Shown piece by piece: positions 3,302 through 61,577 of a DNA stretch of 64,000 bases. Within the stretch, counting starts at the first letter, position 1. Every line of letters starts with the position of its first letter. The DNA comes from Eledone cirrhosa. Taxonomy: Eukaryota. The notes below the pieces were generated by a model. That model did not search any database and was not told the DNA's origin. It saw only the letters and a program-made list of their open reading frames with translations. The stretch is taken from the NCBI GenBank assembly GCA_964016885.1, contig OZ024759.1, positions 20,894,001 through 20,958,000 on the forward strand, given 5' to 3'. The translations under genes and the position numbers were made by a program.

Positions 3302-3777
3302 TGTTCAGAGCCATGCTCAGCATTCTCGTGTAGCACCCATCCACCATCTGAGTAAGTTTCTTAGTCAGTGTCCAAGTCTCAGACCCATACAGCAGCACAG
3401 ACTCCACTACAGCAATGAAGAGGTGGATTTTCAGGTCTTTACGAAGGTTCGACTCCCACACCGATCTCAAGCTGTGGATTAAAAACTCAGAGCTGTATGG
3501 GAGCCTCCCAAAAGTCAGCTCAAAAGTGACACAGAGGAGACTGAGGTTAGCTGGACATGCTCACCGACATCCAGAGTTGACATTGCACTCAGTGCTCCTT
3601 TGGGAGCCCCTACATGGACACACTAGAAGAGGAAGACCAAGGTTAACGTATGTTGATGCCCTAAGGACAGACACTGGTCTGTTGGAGACGCAGGACATGG
3701 CAGCGATAATGAGGGACAGAGACCGCTGGAGAGAACTCGTCCATGGATCTCGGGAATTTTACCCGCCTTAGAAAAGA
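3302..3777 (+). mobile_element. RTE-clade LINE 3' fragment with 5' inversion and 12-bp TSD
   Basis: 3302-3479 minus strand encodes ..ESVLLYGSETWTLTKKLTQMVDGCYTRMLSMALNI; 3478-3771 plus strand encodes IKNSELYG..RRLRLAGHAHRH..RRGRPR..DRDRWR; TSD ATAACTAAGTAA at 3290-3301 and 3778-3789. Confidence 0.9.
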
Positions 3778-4361: not shown

Positions 4362-4760
4362 TTGGCAGTATCGGTAGAGGGTTGGACGCCATGCTTTGAT
4401 GCATAGAGTTACGGCCCTTGCCATTCTGAGTTCAAATCCCGCCTAGGTTAACTTTGCCTTTCATCCTTACGGGGGTCGATAAAATAAAGTACCAGTAATG
4501 CACTCGGATAATTGCTGGCCTTGTGCCAAAAGTAGAAACAATTATTATATATATGAAATATATATAATGGCGGTGGATTGGCAGTATCGGTAGAGAGTCG
4601 GACGCCATGTTTTCCAGCATAGTTACGTCCCTTTACGATCTCAGTTGAAATCCCGCCGAGGTTGACTTTGCCTTTCATCCTTACGGGGGTCGATAAAATA
4701 AAGTACCAGTAATGCACTGGGTAAATTGCTGGCTTTGTGCCTAAAGTAGAAATAATTATT
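4362..4760 (+). mobile_element. Two tandem Nin-type SINEs (4362-4545, 4568-4760)
   Basis: Each has TGGCAGTATCGGTAGAG head, B box, GCCTTTCATCCTTACGGGGGTCGATAAAATAAAGTACCAG core and GTGCCAAAAGTAGAAA-like tail. Confidence 0.85.
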
Positions 4761-4767
4761 ATATATA

Positions 4768-5022
4768 TGAAAAGATTAAGGGCCCCCACGGCTGAGCGCC
4801 GGCCGTTTCGAATACTAGATCCGAACTGAGTGGGTAGACGAGATATCTAGGTTGTTCTACAATTGATGTTGTTGATCTTCATTTTTTAGTTCGGCTCTAG
4901 CTATCGAAACGGCCGGAGCTCAGCCGTTCGGATCCTGAATCTTTTCATATTACCCACTCTGCTACCCCAAGTATAGAGTACTGTGGTGGTTTATGGTCCA
5001 CCTGGTATTTTACCACACCCTT

Positions 5023-9170: not shown

Positions 9171-9409
9171 ACATAGAATCCATTTATAAGTCTCTCTAGT
9201 ACCGGATGTGTTAAGTGCCCTCTAGTAGTAAATATGTTTAACAAATAGGGGTTAGTTAGAGTCATGGTTGCAGATGAGGGTTGGTGGGAGTTATTGACGG
9301 AGGAGAGGGAGACGAAGTGATCAGATAAAAGATTATAGTTGTTACCTCTCTTCATTTTGAGATCGATAAAAGGAAGTACCTGTAAGTACTGGGGTCCACT
9401 TACTCAACG

Positions 9410-12400
9410 ATCTTCTTCGTCGTTGTCCTGCGAAGTTGTTGGGGGTGGACAGAGTCCTCGAGCACTCCTTCCGGCAGGTCTTGTCAGAAGCAACGGTCTG
9501 CAACTGATCCGACTCGATCTCCAAGCGAGACCAGCCGACTCATGGATGTTATCCAACCATCTTGTACGGAGTCTACCTCTGGGTCTCCTGCCGGTTAGTG
9601 TTGCCCGTAAAATCTATCCAGCGATTCTTTCCTGAGACATTCTAACCATATGTCCATAGTATCGGAGCTGTGATATCTCAATTCGGAGAAGTAGCAGCTC
9701 TACCTGGAGTGACTCTCTGATGTGCGAGCTACAAATCTGTCCAGCGATTCTTTCCTGAGACATTCTAACCATATGTCCGTAGTATCGGAGCTGTGATCTC
9801 TTAATTCGCAGAAGTAGCGGCTCTACCTGGAGTGACTCTCTGATGTGCGAGCTACAAATCTGTCCAGCGATTCTTTCCTGAGACATTCTAACCATATGTC
9901 CATAGTATCGGAGCTGTGATCTCTTAATTCGCAGAAGTAGCGGCTCTACCTGGAGTGACTCTGATGTGCGAGCTACAAATCTGTCCAGCGATTCTTTCCT
10001 GAGACATTCTAACCATATGTCCATAGTATCGGAGCTGTGATCTCTTAATTCGCAGAAGTAGCGGCTCTACCTGGAGTGACTCTCTGATGTGCGAGCTACA
10101 AATCTGTCCAGCGATTCTTTCCTGAGACATTCTAACCATATGTCCATAGTATCGGAGCTGTGATCTCTTAATTCGCAGAAGTAGCGGCTCTACCTGGAGT
10201 GACTCTCTGATCTGCGAGCTACAAATCTGTCCAGCGATTCTTTCCTGAGACATTCTAACCATATGTCCATAGTATCGGAGCTGTGATCTCTTAATTCGCA
10301 GAAGTAGCGGCTCTACCTGGAGTGACTCTCTGATCTGCGAGCTACAAATCTGTCCAGCGATTCTTTCCTGAGACATTCTAACCATATGTCCATAGTATCG
10401 GAGCTGTGATCTCTTAATTCGCAGAAGTAGCGGCTCTACCTGGAGTGACTCTCTGATCTGCGAGCTACAAATCTGTCCAGCGATTCTTTCCTGAGACATT
10501 CTAACCATATGTCCATAGTATCGGAGCTGTGATCTCTTAATTTGCAGAAGTAGCGGCTCTACCTGGAGTGACTCTCTGATGTGCGAGCTACAAATCTGTC
10601 CAGCGATTCTTTCCTGAGACATTCTAACCATATGTCCATAGTATCGGAGCTGTGATCTCTTAATTCGCAGAAGTAGCGGCTCTACCTGGAGTGACTCTCT
10701 GATGTGCGAGCTACAAATCTGTCCAGCGATTCTTTCCTGAGACATTCTAACCATATGTCCATAGTATCGGAGCTGTGATCTCTTAATTCGCAGAAGTAGC
10801 GGCTCTACCTGGAGTGACTCTCTGATCTGCGACTTACAAATCTGTCCAGCGATTCTTTCCTGAGACATTCTAACCATATGTCCATAGTATCGGAGCTGTG
10901 ATCTCTTAATTCGCAGAAGTAGCGGCACTACCTGGAGTGACTCTCTGATGTGCGAGCTACAAATCTGTCCAGCGATTCTTTCCTGAGACATTCTAACCAT
11001 ATGTCCATAGTATCGGAGCTGTGATCTCTTAATTCGCAGAAGTAGCGGCTCTACCTGGAGTGACTCTCTGATGTGCGAGCTACAAATCTGTCCAGCGATT
11101 CTTTCCTGAGACATTCTAACCATATGTCCATAGTATCGGAGCTGTGATCTCTTAATTCGCAGAAGTAGCGGCTCTACCTGGAGTGACTCTCTGATGTGCG
11201 AGCTACAAATCTGTCCAGCGATTCTTTCCTGAGACATTCTAACCATATGTCCATAGTATCGGAGGTGTGCTCTCTTAATTCGCAGAAGTAGCGGCTCTAC
11301 CTGGAGTGACTCTCTGATGTGCGAGCTACAAATCTGTCCAGCGATTCTTTCCTGAGACATTCTAACCATATGTCCATAGTATCGGAGCTGTGATCTCTTA
11401 ATTCGCAGAAGTAGCGGCTCTACCTGGAGTGACTCTCTGATGTGCGAGCTACAAATCTGTCCAGCGATTCTTTCCTGAGACATTCTAACCATATGTCCAT
11501 AGTATCGGAGCTGTGATCTCTTAATTCGCAGAAGTAGCGGCTCTACCTGGAGTGACTCTGATGTGCGAGCTACAAATCTGTCGAGCGATTCTTTCCTGAG
11601 ACATTCTAACCATATGTCCATAGTATCGGAGCTGTGATCTCTTAATTCGCAGAAGTAGCGGCTCTACCTGGAGTGACTCTGATGTGCGAGCTACAAATCT
11701 GTCGAGCGATTCTTTCCTGAGACATTCTAACCATATGTCCGTAGTATCGGAGCTGTGATCTCTTAATTCGCAGAAGTAGCGGCTCTACCTGGAGTGACTC
11801 TGATGTGCGAGCTACAAATCTGTCGAGCGATTCTTTCCTGAGACATTCTAACCATATGTCCATAGTATCGGAGCTGTGATCTCTTAATTCGCAGAAGTAG
11901 CGGCTCTACCTGGAGTGACTCTCTGATGTGCGAGCTACAAATCTGTCCAGCGATTCTTTCCTGAGACATTCTAACCATATGTCCATAGTATCGGAGCTGT
12001 GATCTCTTAATTCGCAGAAGTAGCGGCTCTACCTGGAGTGACTCTCTGATGTGCGAGCTACAAATCTGTCCAGCGATTCTTTCCTGAGACATTCTAACCA
12101 TATGTCCATAGTATCGGAGCTGTGATCTCTTAATTCGCAGAAGTAGCGGCTCTACCTGGAGTGACTCTCTGATCTGCGACTTACAAATCTGTCCAGCGAT
12201 TCTTTCCTGAGACATTCTAACCATATGTCCATAGTATCGGAGCTGTGATCTCTTAATTCGCAGAAGTAGCGGCACTACCTGGAGTGACTCTCTGATGTGC
12301 GAGCTACAAATCTGTCCAGCGATTCTTTCCTGAGACATTCTAACCATATGTCCATAGTATCGGAGCTGTGATCTCTTAATTCGCAGAAGTAGCGGCTCTA

Positions 12401-13600
12401 CCTGGAGTGACTCTCTGATGTGCGAGCTACAAATCTGTCCAGCGATTCTTTCCTGAGACATTCTAACCATATGTCCATAGTATCGGAGCTGTGATCTCTT
12501 AATTCGCAGATGTAGCGGCTCTACCTGGAGTGACTCTCTGATGTGCGAGCTACAAATCTGTCCAGCGATTCTTTCCTGAGACATTCTAACCATATGTCCA
12601 TAGTATCGGAGCTGTGCTCTCTTAATTCGCAGAAGTAGCGGCTCTACCTGGAGTGACTCTCTGATGTGCGAGCTACAAATCTGTCCAGCGATTCTTTCCT
12701 GAGACATTCTAACCATATGTCCATAGTATCGGAGCTGTGATCTCTTAATTCGCAGAAGTAGCGGCTCTACCTGGAGTGACTCTCTGATGTGCGAGCTACA
12801 AATCTGTCCAGCGATTCTTTCCTGAGACATTCTAACCATATGTCCATAGTATCGGAGCTGTGATCTCTTAATTCGCAGAAGTAGCGGCTCTACCTGGAGT
12901 GACTCTGATGTGCGAGCTACAAATCTGTCGAGCGATTCTTTCCTGAGACATTCTAACCATATGTCCATAGTATCGGAGCTGTGATCTCTTAATTCGCAGA
13001 AGTAGCGGCTCTACCTGGAGTGACTCTGATGTGCGAGCTACAAATCTGTCGAGCGATTCTTTCCTGAGACATTCTAACCATATGTCCGTAGTATCGGAGC
13101 TGTGATCTCTTAATTCGCAGAAGTAGCGGCTCTACCTGGAGTGACTCTCTGATGTGCGAGCTACAAATCTGTCCAGCGATTCTTTCCTGAGACATTCTAA
13201 CCATATGTTCATAGTATCGGAGCTGTGATCTCTTAATTCAAATAAGTAGCGGCTCTACCTGGAGTGACTCTCTGATGTGCGAGCTACAAATCTGTCCAGC
13301 GATTCTTTCCTGAGACATTCTAACCATATGTCCATAGTATCGGAGCTGTGATCTCTTAATTCGCAGAAGTAGCGGCTCTACCTGGAGTGACTCTCTGATC
13401 TGTGAGCTACAAATCTGTCCAGCGATTCTTTCCTGAGACATTCTAACCATATGTCCATAGTATCGGAGCTGTGATCTCTTAATTCGCAGAAGTAGCGGCT
13501 CTATCTGGAGCAACTCTCTGATCTCCGAACTACACACTCTATCGAGTAACGTTAATCCAAAGACCCTTCGGAGGAACTCCATTTCGGCCGATCGTATTCA
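9410..13600 (-). mobile_element. RTE-clade LINE 3' fragment hosting an internal tandem array
   Basis: Minus strand AEMEFLRRVFGLTLLDRV..QLRYYGHMVRM.., then unique GRRPRGRLRTRWLDNIH-like end and GAAGAAG tail at ~9410. Confidence 0.9.
9614..13535 (-). repeat. LINE-derived tandem array, 32 units of 123 bp (six are 121 bp)
   Basis: Marker C(C/G)AGCGATTCTTTCC recurs from 9618 to 13419 at 123/121-bp spacing; unit = 41 codons SSHIRESLQVEPLLLRIKRSQLRYYGHMVRMSQERIAGQIC. Confidence 0.98.
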
Positions 13601-13958
13601 AAGTGGAAGCCGTACTCTGCCAAAAGTGCGTACTCTCACCTGTCCAGTTCATAATTTTCATGAACAGGTTTGACATGCGCAGCTGGGCTGGAAGTGTGTA
13701 TATTCTACATATATAGATGTGTGTGTCTGTGTGTGTGTACATATATATGTGTTGTATACGAAAGATGTGATGCCCTAGAAGACACCATTTCTAACCATTT
13801 CAAACACAATAAGATCTTCGGCTGACATAATGTTGCGATCAGTTGTTCAGTTATTCCAGATGGAATGCTTCAACCGTAAATCCACAGAACCCCTCGCAGC
13901 CATCGCCCCATCAACCCCCTTATAGCTACCACCATCTGGCAACCGGTTCACTAGGGAG

Positions 13959-41359: not shown

Positions 41360-42325
41360 GATCATCATCATCATCATCATTCGTCGACTACTGTCGAGAT
41401 GATGGATCTCACTCTCATGCCCCCGAATTCCCTGTCCCCCATCGCTGCCCCCAGGTCCTGTCTACTGATTCCCGTATCCCTAGAGATAACGTCAGGAAAT
41501 GACAGCTTCCTACTCATGGTCAGGCTGGAGTCAAGGTTCCAGAGTAAGAGAGCGGATATGATTTCATTGCTGGCACGGTGACAGTGGCCAGCAAATTGAG
41601 CTCCCCGGGATTTTAGAAGGGCAGAGGCTCGAGGGAGTTTGCCATAGATTTTAGACAAGGTGGGATGTCGTTTCCAGGATAGGTTTTGCACTCTCATTAA
41701 GAGGCGGGTATATGTGCCATCCAATCTCCTCTCAAGTTGTGATGTTAGTGTCCAAGTTTCGGATCCATAAAGTAATATGGGCTTAATGGTTGCTTGGAAT
41801 ATTTCCAGTTTTAGCTTGTTGGTAAGTTGAGATGTCCATATGGCGTGCATGTCATTGCACGCTGACCATGCCATACCCTTCCTGGTTAGAAAATCTTTTT
41901 TGGAGGAGGAGATATATGAGCCAAGATACTTGTAATCTTCCACCTGCTTAAGGGTGGTACCATTAAGGGTTCTGATGGGGTAGTTTGGGCTGTTTGCGCA
42001 TCTGTTCACACACTCAGTCTTGGATTCGTTGAGGTACAGTCCAACACAGTTGGACGCTTGCTCTAATGACTTCAAAAGACTCTCAGCATTTTCCAGTGAC
42101 CGACTGATCAATGTGATGTCGTCAGCAAAGTCGGTGTCGGTCAACTATTTTGCTGGGTAGCGTGAGCTTCTCCTAGGCTGTAGTTGGTATCCGCTATCCT
42201 GAATCCTATCCACAGACATGCGCAAAACATAATCCACAACAATGATAAATAGATACGGAGCAAGCGTATCGCCCTGTAAAATTCCAGCGAGGATTGAGAA
42301 AGGTGGTGTTTCCCCATCTTGGAAA
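41360..42325 (-). pseudogene. 5'-truncated RTE-like LINE reverse transcriptase
   Basis: GILQGDTLAPYLF, FADD, YKYLGS, LLYGSETW, FAGHC motifs; in-frame stop at 42145; (TGA)n 3' tail at 41360-41380. Confidence 0.92.
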
Positions 42326-52006: not shown

Positions 52007-52633
52007 TTCTTTTTCTTGTTTTCTTCGCCTACTTATTCCTGAGAGGGTCGTGGGGACAGTGCTCAAGCACTCCCTCGAGCGGATCCTGTCTGTAGCAACC
52101 ATCTCAAACTGATCCGGCTGGATCCCCAAGCCGAAATGGAGTTCCTCCGAAGGGTCTTTGGAGTAACATTACTCGATAAAGTGCGTAGGTCGGAGATCAG
52201 AGAGTCATTCCAGGTAGAGCCGCTACTTTTCCGAATTGAGAGATCACAGCTCCGATACTATGGGCAGATGCTTAGAATGTCTCAGGAAAGAATCACTGGA
52301 TAGAGTTGTAGCTAGGAGATCAGAGTCGCTCCAGGTAGAGCCGCTACTTCTTCGAATTGAGACATCACAGCTCCGATACTATGGGCATGTGGTTAGAATG
52401 TCTCAGCATAGAATCACTGGATATAGTTTTAGCTCGGAGATCAGTCACTCCAGGTAGAGCCGCTACTTTTCCGAATTGAGAGATCACAGCTCCGATACTA
52501 TGGGCATGTGGTTAGAATGTCTCATGAAAGAATCGCTGGACAGATTTTACGGGCCGAACCAACAGGTAGGAGACCCAAGGGTAGACCCCGAGCAAGATGG
52601 TTAGATAACATCCATGAGCTTGGCTGGTCATGC
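52007..52633 (-). mobile_element. RTE LINE fragment (family of 9410-13600) with 5' inversion and 3 tandem units
   Basis: GAA-rich tail and 3' end on minus (52007-52132); 52133-52633 inverted; candidate TSD TTATATTTAG / TTATGTTTAG. Confidence 0.85.
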
Positions 52634-52833
52634 TTATGTTTAGATAAAGTAGTAAATAAACAAAAGTATCATAAACAATTTTAAATATATACGCAATCAC
52701 AAAAATTAATTCCTCTATGTGCAGAGTCTGGTAGATTAGGTAACAAACGAGTGATATTTTTACATGTTGTGTATCAATATTGCGGGTATTTTCACTCTCT
52801 TCAAACTACCCGATTTTAAGGGAACATTATTAA

Positions 52834-60559: not shown

Positions 60560-60848
60560 ATCTATCTAAGGCGGGTAAAATTCCCGAGATCCATGGACGA
60601 GTTCTCTCCAGCGGTCTCTGTCCCTCATTATCGCTGCCATGTCCTGCGTCTCCAACAGACCAGTGTCTGTCCTTAGGGCATCAAAATACGTTAACCTTGG
60701 TCTTCCTTTTCTAGTGTGTCCATGTAGGGGCTCCCAAGGGAGCACTGAGTGCAATGTCAACTCTGGATGTCGGTGAGCATGTCCAGCCAACCTCAGTCTC
60801 CTCTGTGTCACTTTTGAGCTGACTTTTGGGATGCTCCCATACAGCTCC
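60560..60848 (-). mobile_element. RTE LINE 3' fragment, near-identical to 3490-3771
   Basis: ELYGSIPKVSSKVTQRRLRLAGHAHRH..REFYPP; (TAGA)-like tail; embedded in TA tract. Confidence 0.9.
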
Positions 60849-60881
60849 ATACGTATATATATATATACATATATATACTTA

Positions 60882-61577
60882 TCATCACCTCCACGTCATG
60901 CAAATCTCTCAGATCCCTCGGCAGCTTGTTGAAGAGTTGAGGGCCCTTGAATCCCAGGCTATTGCAATACCTGCTCCTTATTCTAGATGTGGAAGACGGG
61001 ACCTTTGGCACCACACAGTGACGTCCTGTTCGACGGTTGGTCCAGCTCCCAATGCCAAAGTTTGGTGCTATTCCCTCCAGGATTTTCCACATGTAGATCA
61101 CTGCGTATCTCTCCCGTCTTCGTTCCAAGGAGTAGAGGTTCAGTTCCTTTAGCCTCTCCCAGTAGCTTGCCTCCTTCATCGTGGCAATCCTCTTGGTGTA
61201 GCTTCGCTGGATTGCCTCAAGCACCGTGGTTAGTTTGACACTATGGGGTGACCACAACTGGGAGCAGTAGTCCAGACGGCTTAGGACAAATGTCCTCCAT
61301 AGTGTCAACATGGTGTCTCAGTCTCTTGTCCGGAAAGTCCTCAAGATCCAGCCAGCGAGTCGTCTGCACATTGTCGACACTTTCATGTTGTGTGAAGAAA
61401 AATATGCATCATCGCTCATGTCTATACCCAGGTCTCGTATCGATTTTGACACGGGGATATCGGTCCCTCCTGGTCCTGTGTAGTTGTGTTCTACTATATT
61501 TGTGTTTGCAGGTTTGTTTGGAGGTTTGTATTGTAGGGCTTGGAATTTGCCAGCATTAAACTGCATGTTGTTTTCTA
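60882..61577 (-). pseudogene. CR1/L2-group LINE RT C-terminal fragment
   Basis: [40 protein letters not shown] motifs; in-frame stop at 61318. Confidence 0.88.

Follow-up and report, generated by a model that had tools for sequence, protein, structure and literature searches.

In the squamate SINE-derived satellites (sSats), an internal part of a retroposon is arranged in tandem at many loci with the ends of the element kept, units from different loci resemble one another more closely than the parent copies do (89% versus 64% in cobra), and several unit variants and a subtelomeric bias have been described (PMC10702118). On the Drosophila X chromosome, 1.688 clusters have been entered by the Rsp-like satellite; a rare junction is common to many loci there, and this spread into resident homologous repeats was proposed to proceed via interlocus conversion or eccDNA (PMC7403614). 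For human TE-derived tandem repeats, 5,747 of 5,932 clusters are single-locus and growth is ascribed to in situ duplication (PMC3389668). LINE-related satellite monomers include chicken HinfI/CR1, hamster PROsat/L1 and the cetacean common satellite (PMC9659126), and LINE-related satellites are also catalogued in a review (PMC6947457). How a tandem repeat spreads beyond its first locus has usually been argued from few loci.

Analysis of a 64,000-nucleotide stretch of the Eledone cirrhosa genome (the window; C20, 37 Mb, in a genome of 3.0 Gb) revealed an array of a LINE ORF segment, and LINE copies inserted at hundreds of unrelated positions in the genome carry arrays of the same segment. The junction types are few (123, 65 and 70 bp) and the arrays are crowded on the smallest chromosomes. 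As in the sSats, an internal part of the parent stands in tandem at many loci with the parent ends retained. We consider it probable (roughly 60%) that the window array belongs to a multi-locus family whose members are nested in aged, truncated copies of a single LINE, and that its junction was copied by homology from another array, after which the dimer expanded in place. The relevant features of the window are as follows.

9410..9609, minus strand: LINE 3' end, comprising the ORF end, a short 3' UTR and a decayed GAA-type tail
9610..9732, minus strand: last unit; positions 9 and 11 in common with interior units, private substitutions at 37, 58 and 117
9733..13410, minus strand: 30 interior units of 123 bp, six with a 2-bp deletion; an 11-unit block is repeated
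9924..11663, minus strand: repeat frame of 579 aa stop-to-stop (565 from the first ATG)
11763..13010, minus strand: repeat frame of 415 aa stop-to-stop (401 from the first ATG)
13411..13533, minus strand: first unit, which alone has substitutions at unit positions 5, 22, 23 and 30; 47 and 54 in common with interior units
13534..13599, minus strand: non-tandem LINE ORF, 65 bp, upstream of the array
13596..13701, plus strand: twin-priming-like 5' inversion, consisting of an upstream piece of the array's own LINE (about -500 to -600 relative to the unit)
52023..52635, no single strand (units plus): second family copy, whose three units keep the 123-bp register of the array and adjoin an inverted, twin-priming-like 3' end

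Tandem Repeats Finder places the array at 9610-13534 with period 123, 32.0 copies and 98% matches, in agreement with the original prediction of 32 highly identical 123-bp units. The spacings between its 32 anchors are 123 bp in 25 cases and 121 bp in six, each of the latter being a 2-bp deletion, and together with the minus-strand frames they bear out the predicted 565- and 401-aa repeat ORFs broken by such deletions. The unique LINE sequence expected on both sides was also seen, as non-tandem LINE of about 65 bp upstream and about 190 bp plus the decayed tail downstream. The segment at 13596-13701 is reversed relative to seven of the eight long family copies that match it (nine were tried), and no target-site duplication was found at the array insertion. 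The copy number of 32 is an assembly figure; a read-depth test gave short contigs common to the whole family. Inflation of this number by the assembly is nevertheless most improbable, given that the array contains 16 distinct unit types in an ordered pattern, that two other samples show the joint in their raw reads (329 and 313 reads), as do four contigs of a second organism, and that arrays of 2 to 62 units, some running past the sequence examined, occur at many loci.

Other repeats were noticed alongside the array. A 214-bp tandem of 1.9 copies at window positions 4362-4772 consists of an abundant short repeat with matches in 161 of 347 loci and is probably a SINE dimer. Stop-free stretches at 41380-42144 (minus strand, 255 aa), 3352-3768 (plus strand, 139 aa) and 60811-61317 (minus strand, 169 aa) resemble pieces of further LINE families. 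Outside the window, long stop-free RT frames of another LINE family, apparently a younger one, were found in L120 (2-2188, plus strand, 729 aa) and L153 (3795-5486, plus strand, 564 aa).

The unit corresponds to the LINE frame SSHIRE...LRYYGHMVRM...AGQIC. Its assignment to the C-terminal domain of the LINE is upheld by alignment: the 5' LINE part plus the first unit is 68% identical to residues 928-989 of a 1047-aa endonuclease and RT protein, downstream of the RT domain of that homolog (613-859). The closest homologs are endonuclease and RT proteins of about 950-1050 aa, many of them from fish, whose names lack the term RTE, and a longer family copy (L017) matches RVT_1 with E=5e-8. No full-length copy of the array's LINE family was found; the longest extends some 1.2 kb beyond the unit on its upstream side. 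The LINE soon reaches its stop codon and then a GAA-type tail, leaving a very short 3' UTR that ends in a simple repeat. The parent is tentatively placed in the RTE clade as a Rex3/Expander-like element. Features described for RTE elements include a single ORF with endonuclease and RT (PMC2887409), and the architecture and tail inferred for the parent would fit this label.

The units of the window array differ in age. Of 112 non-CpG sites compared, 10 distinguish the first unit from the last, which indicates that the dimer is old, and the interior unit, carrying two last-unit and two first-unit substitutions, is a recombinant of these two long-diverged edge units. The interior units show only 1.5% pairwise divergence, the downstream flank departs from the family reference at 18 of 164 sites (11%), and all 25 matches to the window's unit variant lie inside the window; together, these values indicate an old dimer that expanded recently in place, as the claim of a recent local expansion had held. 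The accompanying claim of a one-off birth at this locus is not supported: a 19-mer spanning the junction has 1464 matches in the genome, none of them on C1 (control, 0), the canonical junction has a microhomology of only 0-1 bp, and the dimer is old. Since the window's unit variant is absent elsewhere, no donor can be pinpointed, and this weighs against the reading in which the junction was copied from another array.

Nine of 29 other top-match loci are arrays in the same register, one of them at 52.1-52.6 kb of the window. A last-unit pattern that occurs once per array has at least 143 matches genome-wide, with six on C1-4 (the four largest chromosomes, which hold 54% of the genome sequence), another 25 on C6-18 and 69 from C19 through the first 13.6 Mb of C24; the remaining 43 lie further down. 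The single-unit junction has 1722 matches, and the initial 214 Mb of C1 hold at least 100 of these; first-unit patterns fall on C1-4 in 1 of 14 duplicated copies versus 92 of 156 single ones (Fisher p=3e-4). In a junction-blind sample of 67 loci, arrays were present in 11 of 12 copies on C24-27 and 2 of 14 on C14-22, while the 37 copies on C1-12 and C28 included one single duplication and no multi-unit array, and none of four unplaced copies had one; the pattern used is CpG-decayed and hence biased toward methylated regions, and the C24-27 figure stands on 12 loci. Matches on large chromosomes lie in many cases, but not all, near the ends. A search with a 92-bp last-unit pattern gave no matches.

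In the array set, overlapping stretches of one array were counted once, and L298, L310, L234 and L235 were dropped. Spread by segmental duplication was rejected, as only four 3' flanks are shared among 165 loci and the insertion sites are independent. L297 and L298 (C28, 123.8 and 135.7 Mb) share 225 bp of 3' flank at 100% identity 12 Mb apart, which reflects either a very recent duplication or an assembly duplication. Unit lengths of 84 bp (L033, C2, 397.66 Mb), 102 bp (L071) and 97-99 bp (L209) are deletions within 123-bp arrays. A deletion of about 21 bp between short repeats, about 82-105 downstream in the LINE, recurs in the array loci L067, L096, L147, L150, L155, L160 and L163; in that form it was not seen in 59 singles. 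Unit position 80 and upstream position -6 are non-CpG sites where G and A both segregate, at 25-60%, among singles as well as arrays; they were discarded as subfamily markers because, although they looked linked in small sets, 28 of 100 singles with -6A carry 80A. A seeming cluster of 5' ends within unit positions 1-15 was likewise set aside, about 5 of 12 having proved to be deletions or another junction.

The spread of one junction over so many insertions could reflect retrotransposition of a master element that already carried the in-frame 41-codon duplication, with expansion and homogenisation of its dimers limited to regions of high recombination. An in-frame junction is expected of a dimer-bearing master, and this weighs against the copying reading. 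Across 17 dimers, 12 non-CpG changes are common to both units versus 56 and 65 private ones, so the duplication did not arise by late copying of the unit already in place; the two units have diverged independently and are about as old as the insertions, as such a master would predict. Array flanks are of the same age as those of singles, some copies have an inversion breakpoint inside the unit (L024), and 26 of 50 arrays were called with a 5' end inside the unit (about four of these are internal deletions on inspection). However, singles are truncated inside the unit about equally often (17 of 52 non-duplicate singles, positions 1-85). A master should also have seeded C1-4, yet the junction is absent from C1 and from the 100 copies listed out of 184, which lie on C1-C8. 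Furthermore, no fixed flank difference separates 76 arrays from 59 singles (seven irregular arrays left out), so that a diagnostic flank site is lacking, and the unit variants are chromosome-specific. We therefore regard a master element as unlikely, notwithstanding the points in its favor.

Independent duplication at every locus, by microhomology slippage at a hotspot that acts more often on small chromosomes, is less plausible still. The 65- and 70-bp junctions are located on short matches, microhomology deletions are numerous at array loci, and one lone 101-bp duplication occurs on C6. Reads also carry many shorter back-joints, and nearly all of the 15 listed in the unit region are nested within the unit. 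The 123-bp junction behaves differently: it had been described as joining two similar sequences, but these motifs lie 124 bp apart (8 of 12 positions alike) and are out of register with a joint at 123, where microhomology is 0-1 bp. That this joint is nonetheless base-identical at 143 or more sites points to a single origin. Late local duplication would also predict private changes shared by both units, which are rarely seen, and independent events cannot yield haplotypes common to several loci; for the 123-bp type, independent slippage is thus disfavoured. The canonical joint was not among the joints listed for one further read run, X1. A separate back-joint of 35-36 bp in the LINE 3' end (L011, 1808-1843) was found only in reads of the second organism (run X4) and is perhaps a species-specific array type.

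Exchange of units between loci is where the copying reading finds its main evidence, and the signal is strong for the 65-bp type and modest for the 123-bp type. The 65-bp type has 85 matches (32 on C25, eight on C26, nine on C27 and eight on distal C28), from which 70 loci were analysed and 60 entered the final test. Middle units at these 60 loci are 6.0% apart between loci and 4.4% apart on the same chromosome, whereas the downstream LINE flanks of 65-bp loci are 16.3% apart and the same 65-bp segment in single-unit copies 14.3%. The haplotype CAGA is present at 25 of 26 C25 loci versus 2 of 110 singles, and a 1-bp deletion marks all seven independent C28 loci of this type versus none of 53 elsewhere. 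Retrotransposition would copy and scatter flank and unit together, and the pattern therefore needs movement of units between resident copies, mostly within one chromosome. The 5' ends vary among the C25 loci, and the interior haplotype is missing from 9 of 22 first and 4 of 44 last units of the 65-bp type. Downstream flanks share slightly more within a chromosome (0.088 versus 0.063), with four alleles enriched on C25, which may reflect conversion tracts reaching into the flank or a subfamily. The 70-bp type has nine matches, four of them on C24.

For the 123-bp type, 96 of 143 loci were analysed, 75 of which have interior units, and units are 9.5% apart between loci versus about 14% in singles. 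Excess sharing was detected within C23 (p=0.002) and C24 (p<0.001), with none within C19, C20 (four loci), C21 or C22, and across 59 arrays of this type alleles were not shared in excess overall (p=0.10). There is good support for exchange between arrays that already exist. Homogenisation of existing arrays alone does not prove that single-unit copies are invaded; it is from the near-saturation of C24-27, together with absence on C1, that we infer such invasion.

A mechanism is proposed where the 123-bp junction was made once by a rare duplication and units were carried into resident LINE copies by ectopic gene conversion, with another array serving as template for break repair. Re-integration of an excised circle could be an alternative carrier. 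Transfer would take place mostly within one chromosome, unequal exchange or slippage would then lengthen each array, and the shorter unit types could arise by microhomology deletion. A link to recombination rate is suggested by the general tendency of small chromosomes to recombine more per base. More tentatively, and at somewhat less than even odds, the LINE-ORF fragment may be a self-spreading repeat for which thousands of dead parent copies serve as landing pads, with rival unit strains (123, 65 and 70 bp) sweeping chromosome by chromosome until most copies on the smallest chromosomes have been converted; such a conversion drive would map ectopic recombination neighbourhoods.

The open reading frame itself had been put forward as raw material for a repeat protein or a small-RNA locus. 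The window unit is indeed stop-free, which gives the 565- and 401-aa frames, but the array contains six frameshifts and its variants comprise 3 synonymous versus 12 non-synonymous changes. Among 350 units at other loci, 245 have a stop, 42 a frameshift and only 63 are open, and the unit majority is open in only 14 of 75 loci. Retention of the frame as a repeat protein, or of the array as a small-RNA source, is accordingly very improbable; the 579-aa frame is a by-product of the in-frame unit. Pfam searches of the repeat frames gave nothing above curated cut-offs, Rfam gave no matches on 9300-10200, and unit folding is no better than that of shuffles (z=+1.1 to +1.3). A circular-RNA or ribozyme origin was dismissed on the lack of an Rfam match, of an unusual fold and, by eye, of splice signals at the junction. 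Judged by sequence, the arrays are most likely non-coding and either selfish or neutral.

The window alone is modest; the whole family is a good test bed. At each of hundreds of loci the LINE flank serves as a built-in clock and the unit haplotype as a marker; which locus donated to which, the restriction to chromosomes and the part played by recombination rate thereby become directly testable. The window array also advises caution: an in-frame array that looks young at a single locus does not have to mark a birth event or a nascent gene.

A literature search covering mainly open main texts gave no description of this LINE-nested family, and the available text of PMC13282606 does not mention satellites. 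The arrays here have 2 to 62 units, unlike the very long heterochromatic arrays of classical satellite DNA. Dispersed VNTRs expanded inside retroposon copies have reportedly been found before, as a mouse B1-derived family (Bois 1998) and as Alu-derived minisatellites (Jurka and Gentles 2006); these are said to have very short units and to have expanded independently, with no inter-locus spread. The chicken, hamster and cetacean satellites form classical arrays and, in the available text of PMC9659126, are not described as hundreds of arrays nested in parent copies. Human TE-derived repeats resemble the present family in being TE-internal arrays with variable unit number and hotspots inside TEs, mostly without flanking direct repeats, and differ in being mostly single-locus, with no genomic hotspots reported in the available text (PMC3389668). 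The Rsp-like case shares with ours a single junction at many loci, and the same kind of spread is proposed here. There, as far as the available text of PMC7403614 describes, a satellite invades an unrelated satellite at tens of loci and the spread was examined by synteny and eccDNA tests, whereas here a LINE piece would invade copies of its own parent at hundreds of loci and spread is judged from sequence. The sSats and the Rsp-like case are the closest matches. As in the sSats, units are closer between loci than their parents are (6.0% versus 14.3% for the 65-bp type, 9.5% versus about 14% for the 123-bp type). The parent here is a LINE ORF rather than a SINE, both of its ends are usually kept, and arrays favour the smallest chromosomes, where the majority of copies sampled on C24-27 have been converted. 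The present family is further distinguished by chromosome-specific haplotypes and the unit-versus-flank test, and the term gene conversion does not occur in the main text of PMC10702118. By analogy, the LINE-nested arrays thus appear to work like an sSat without being one.
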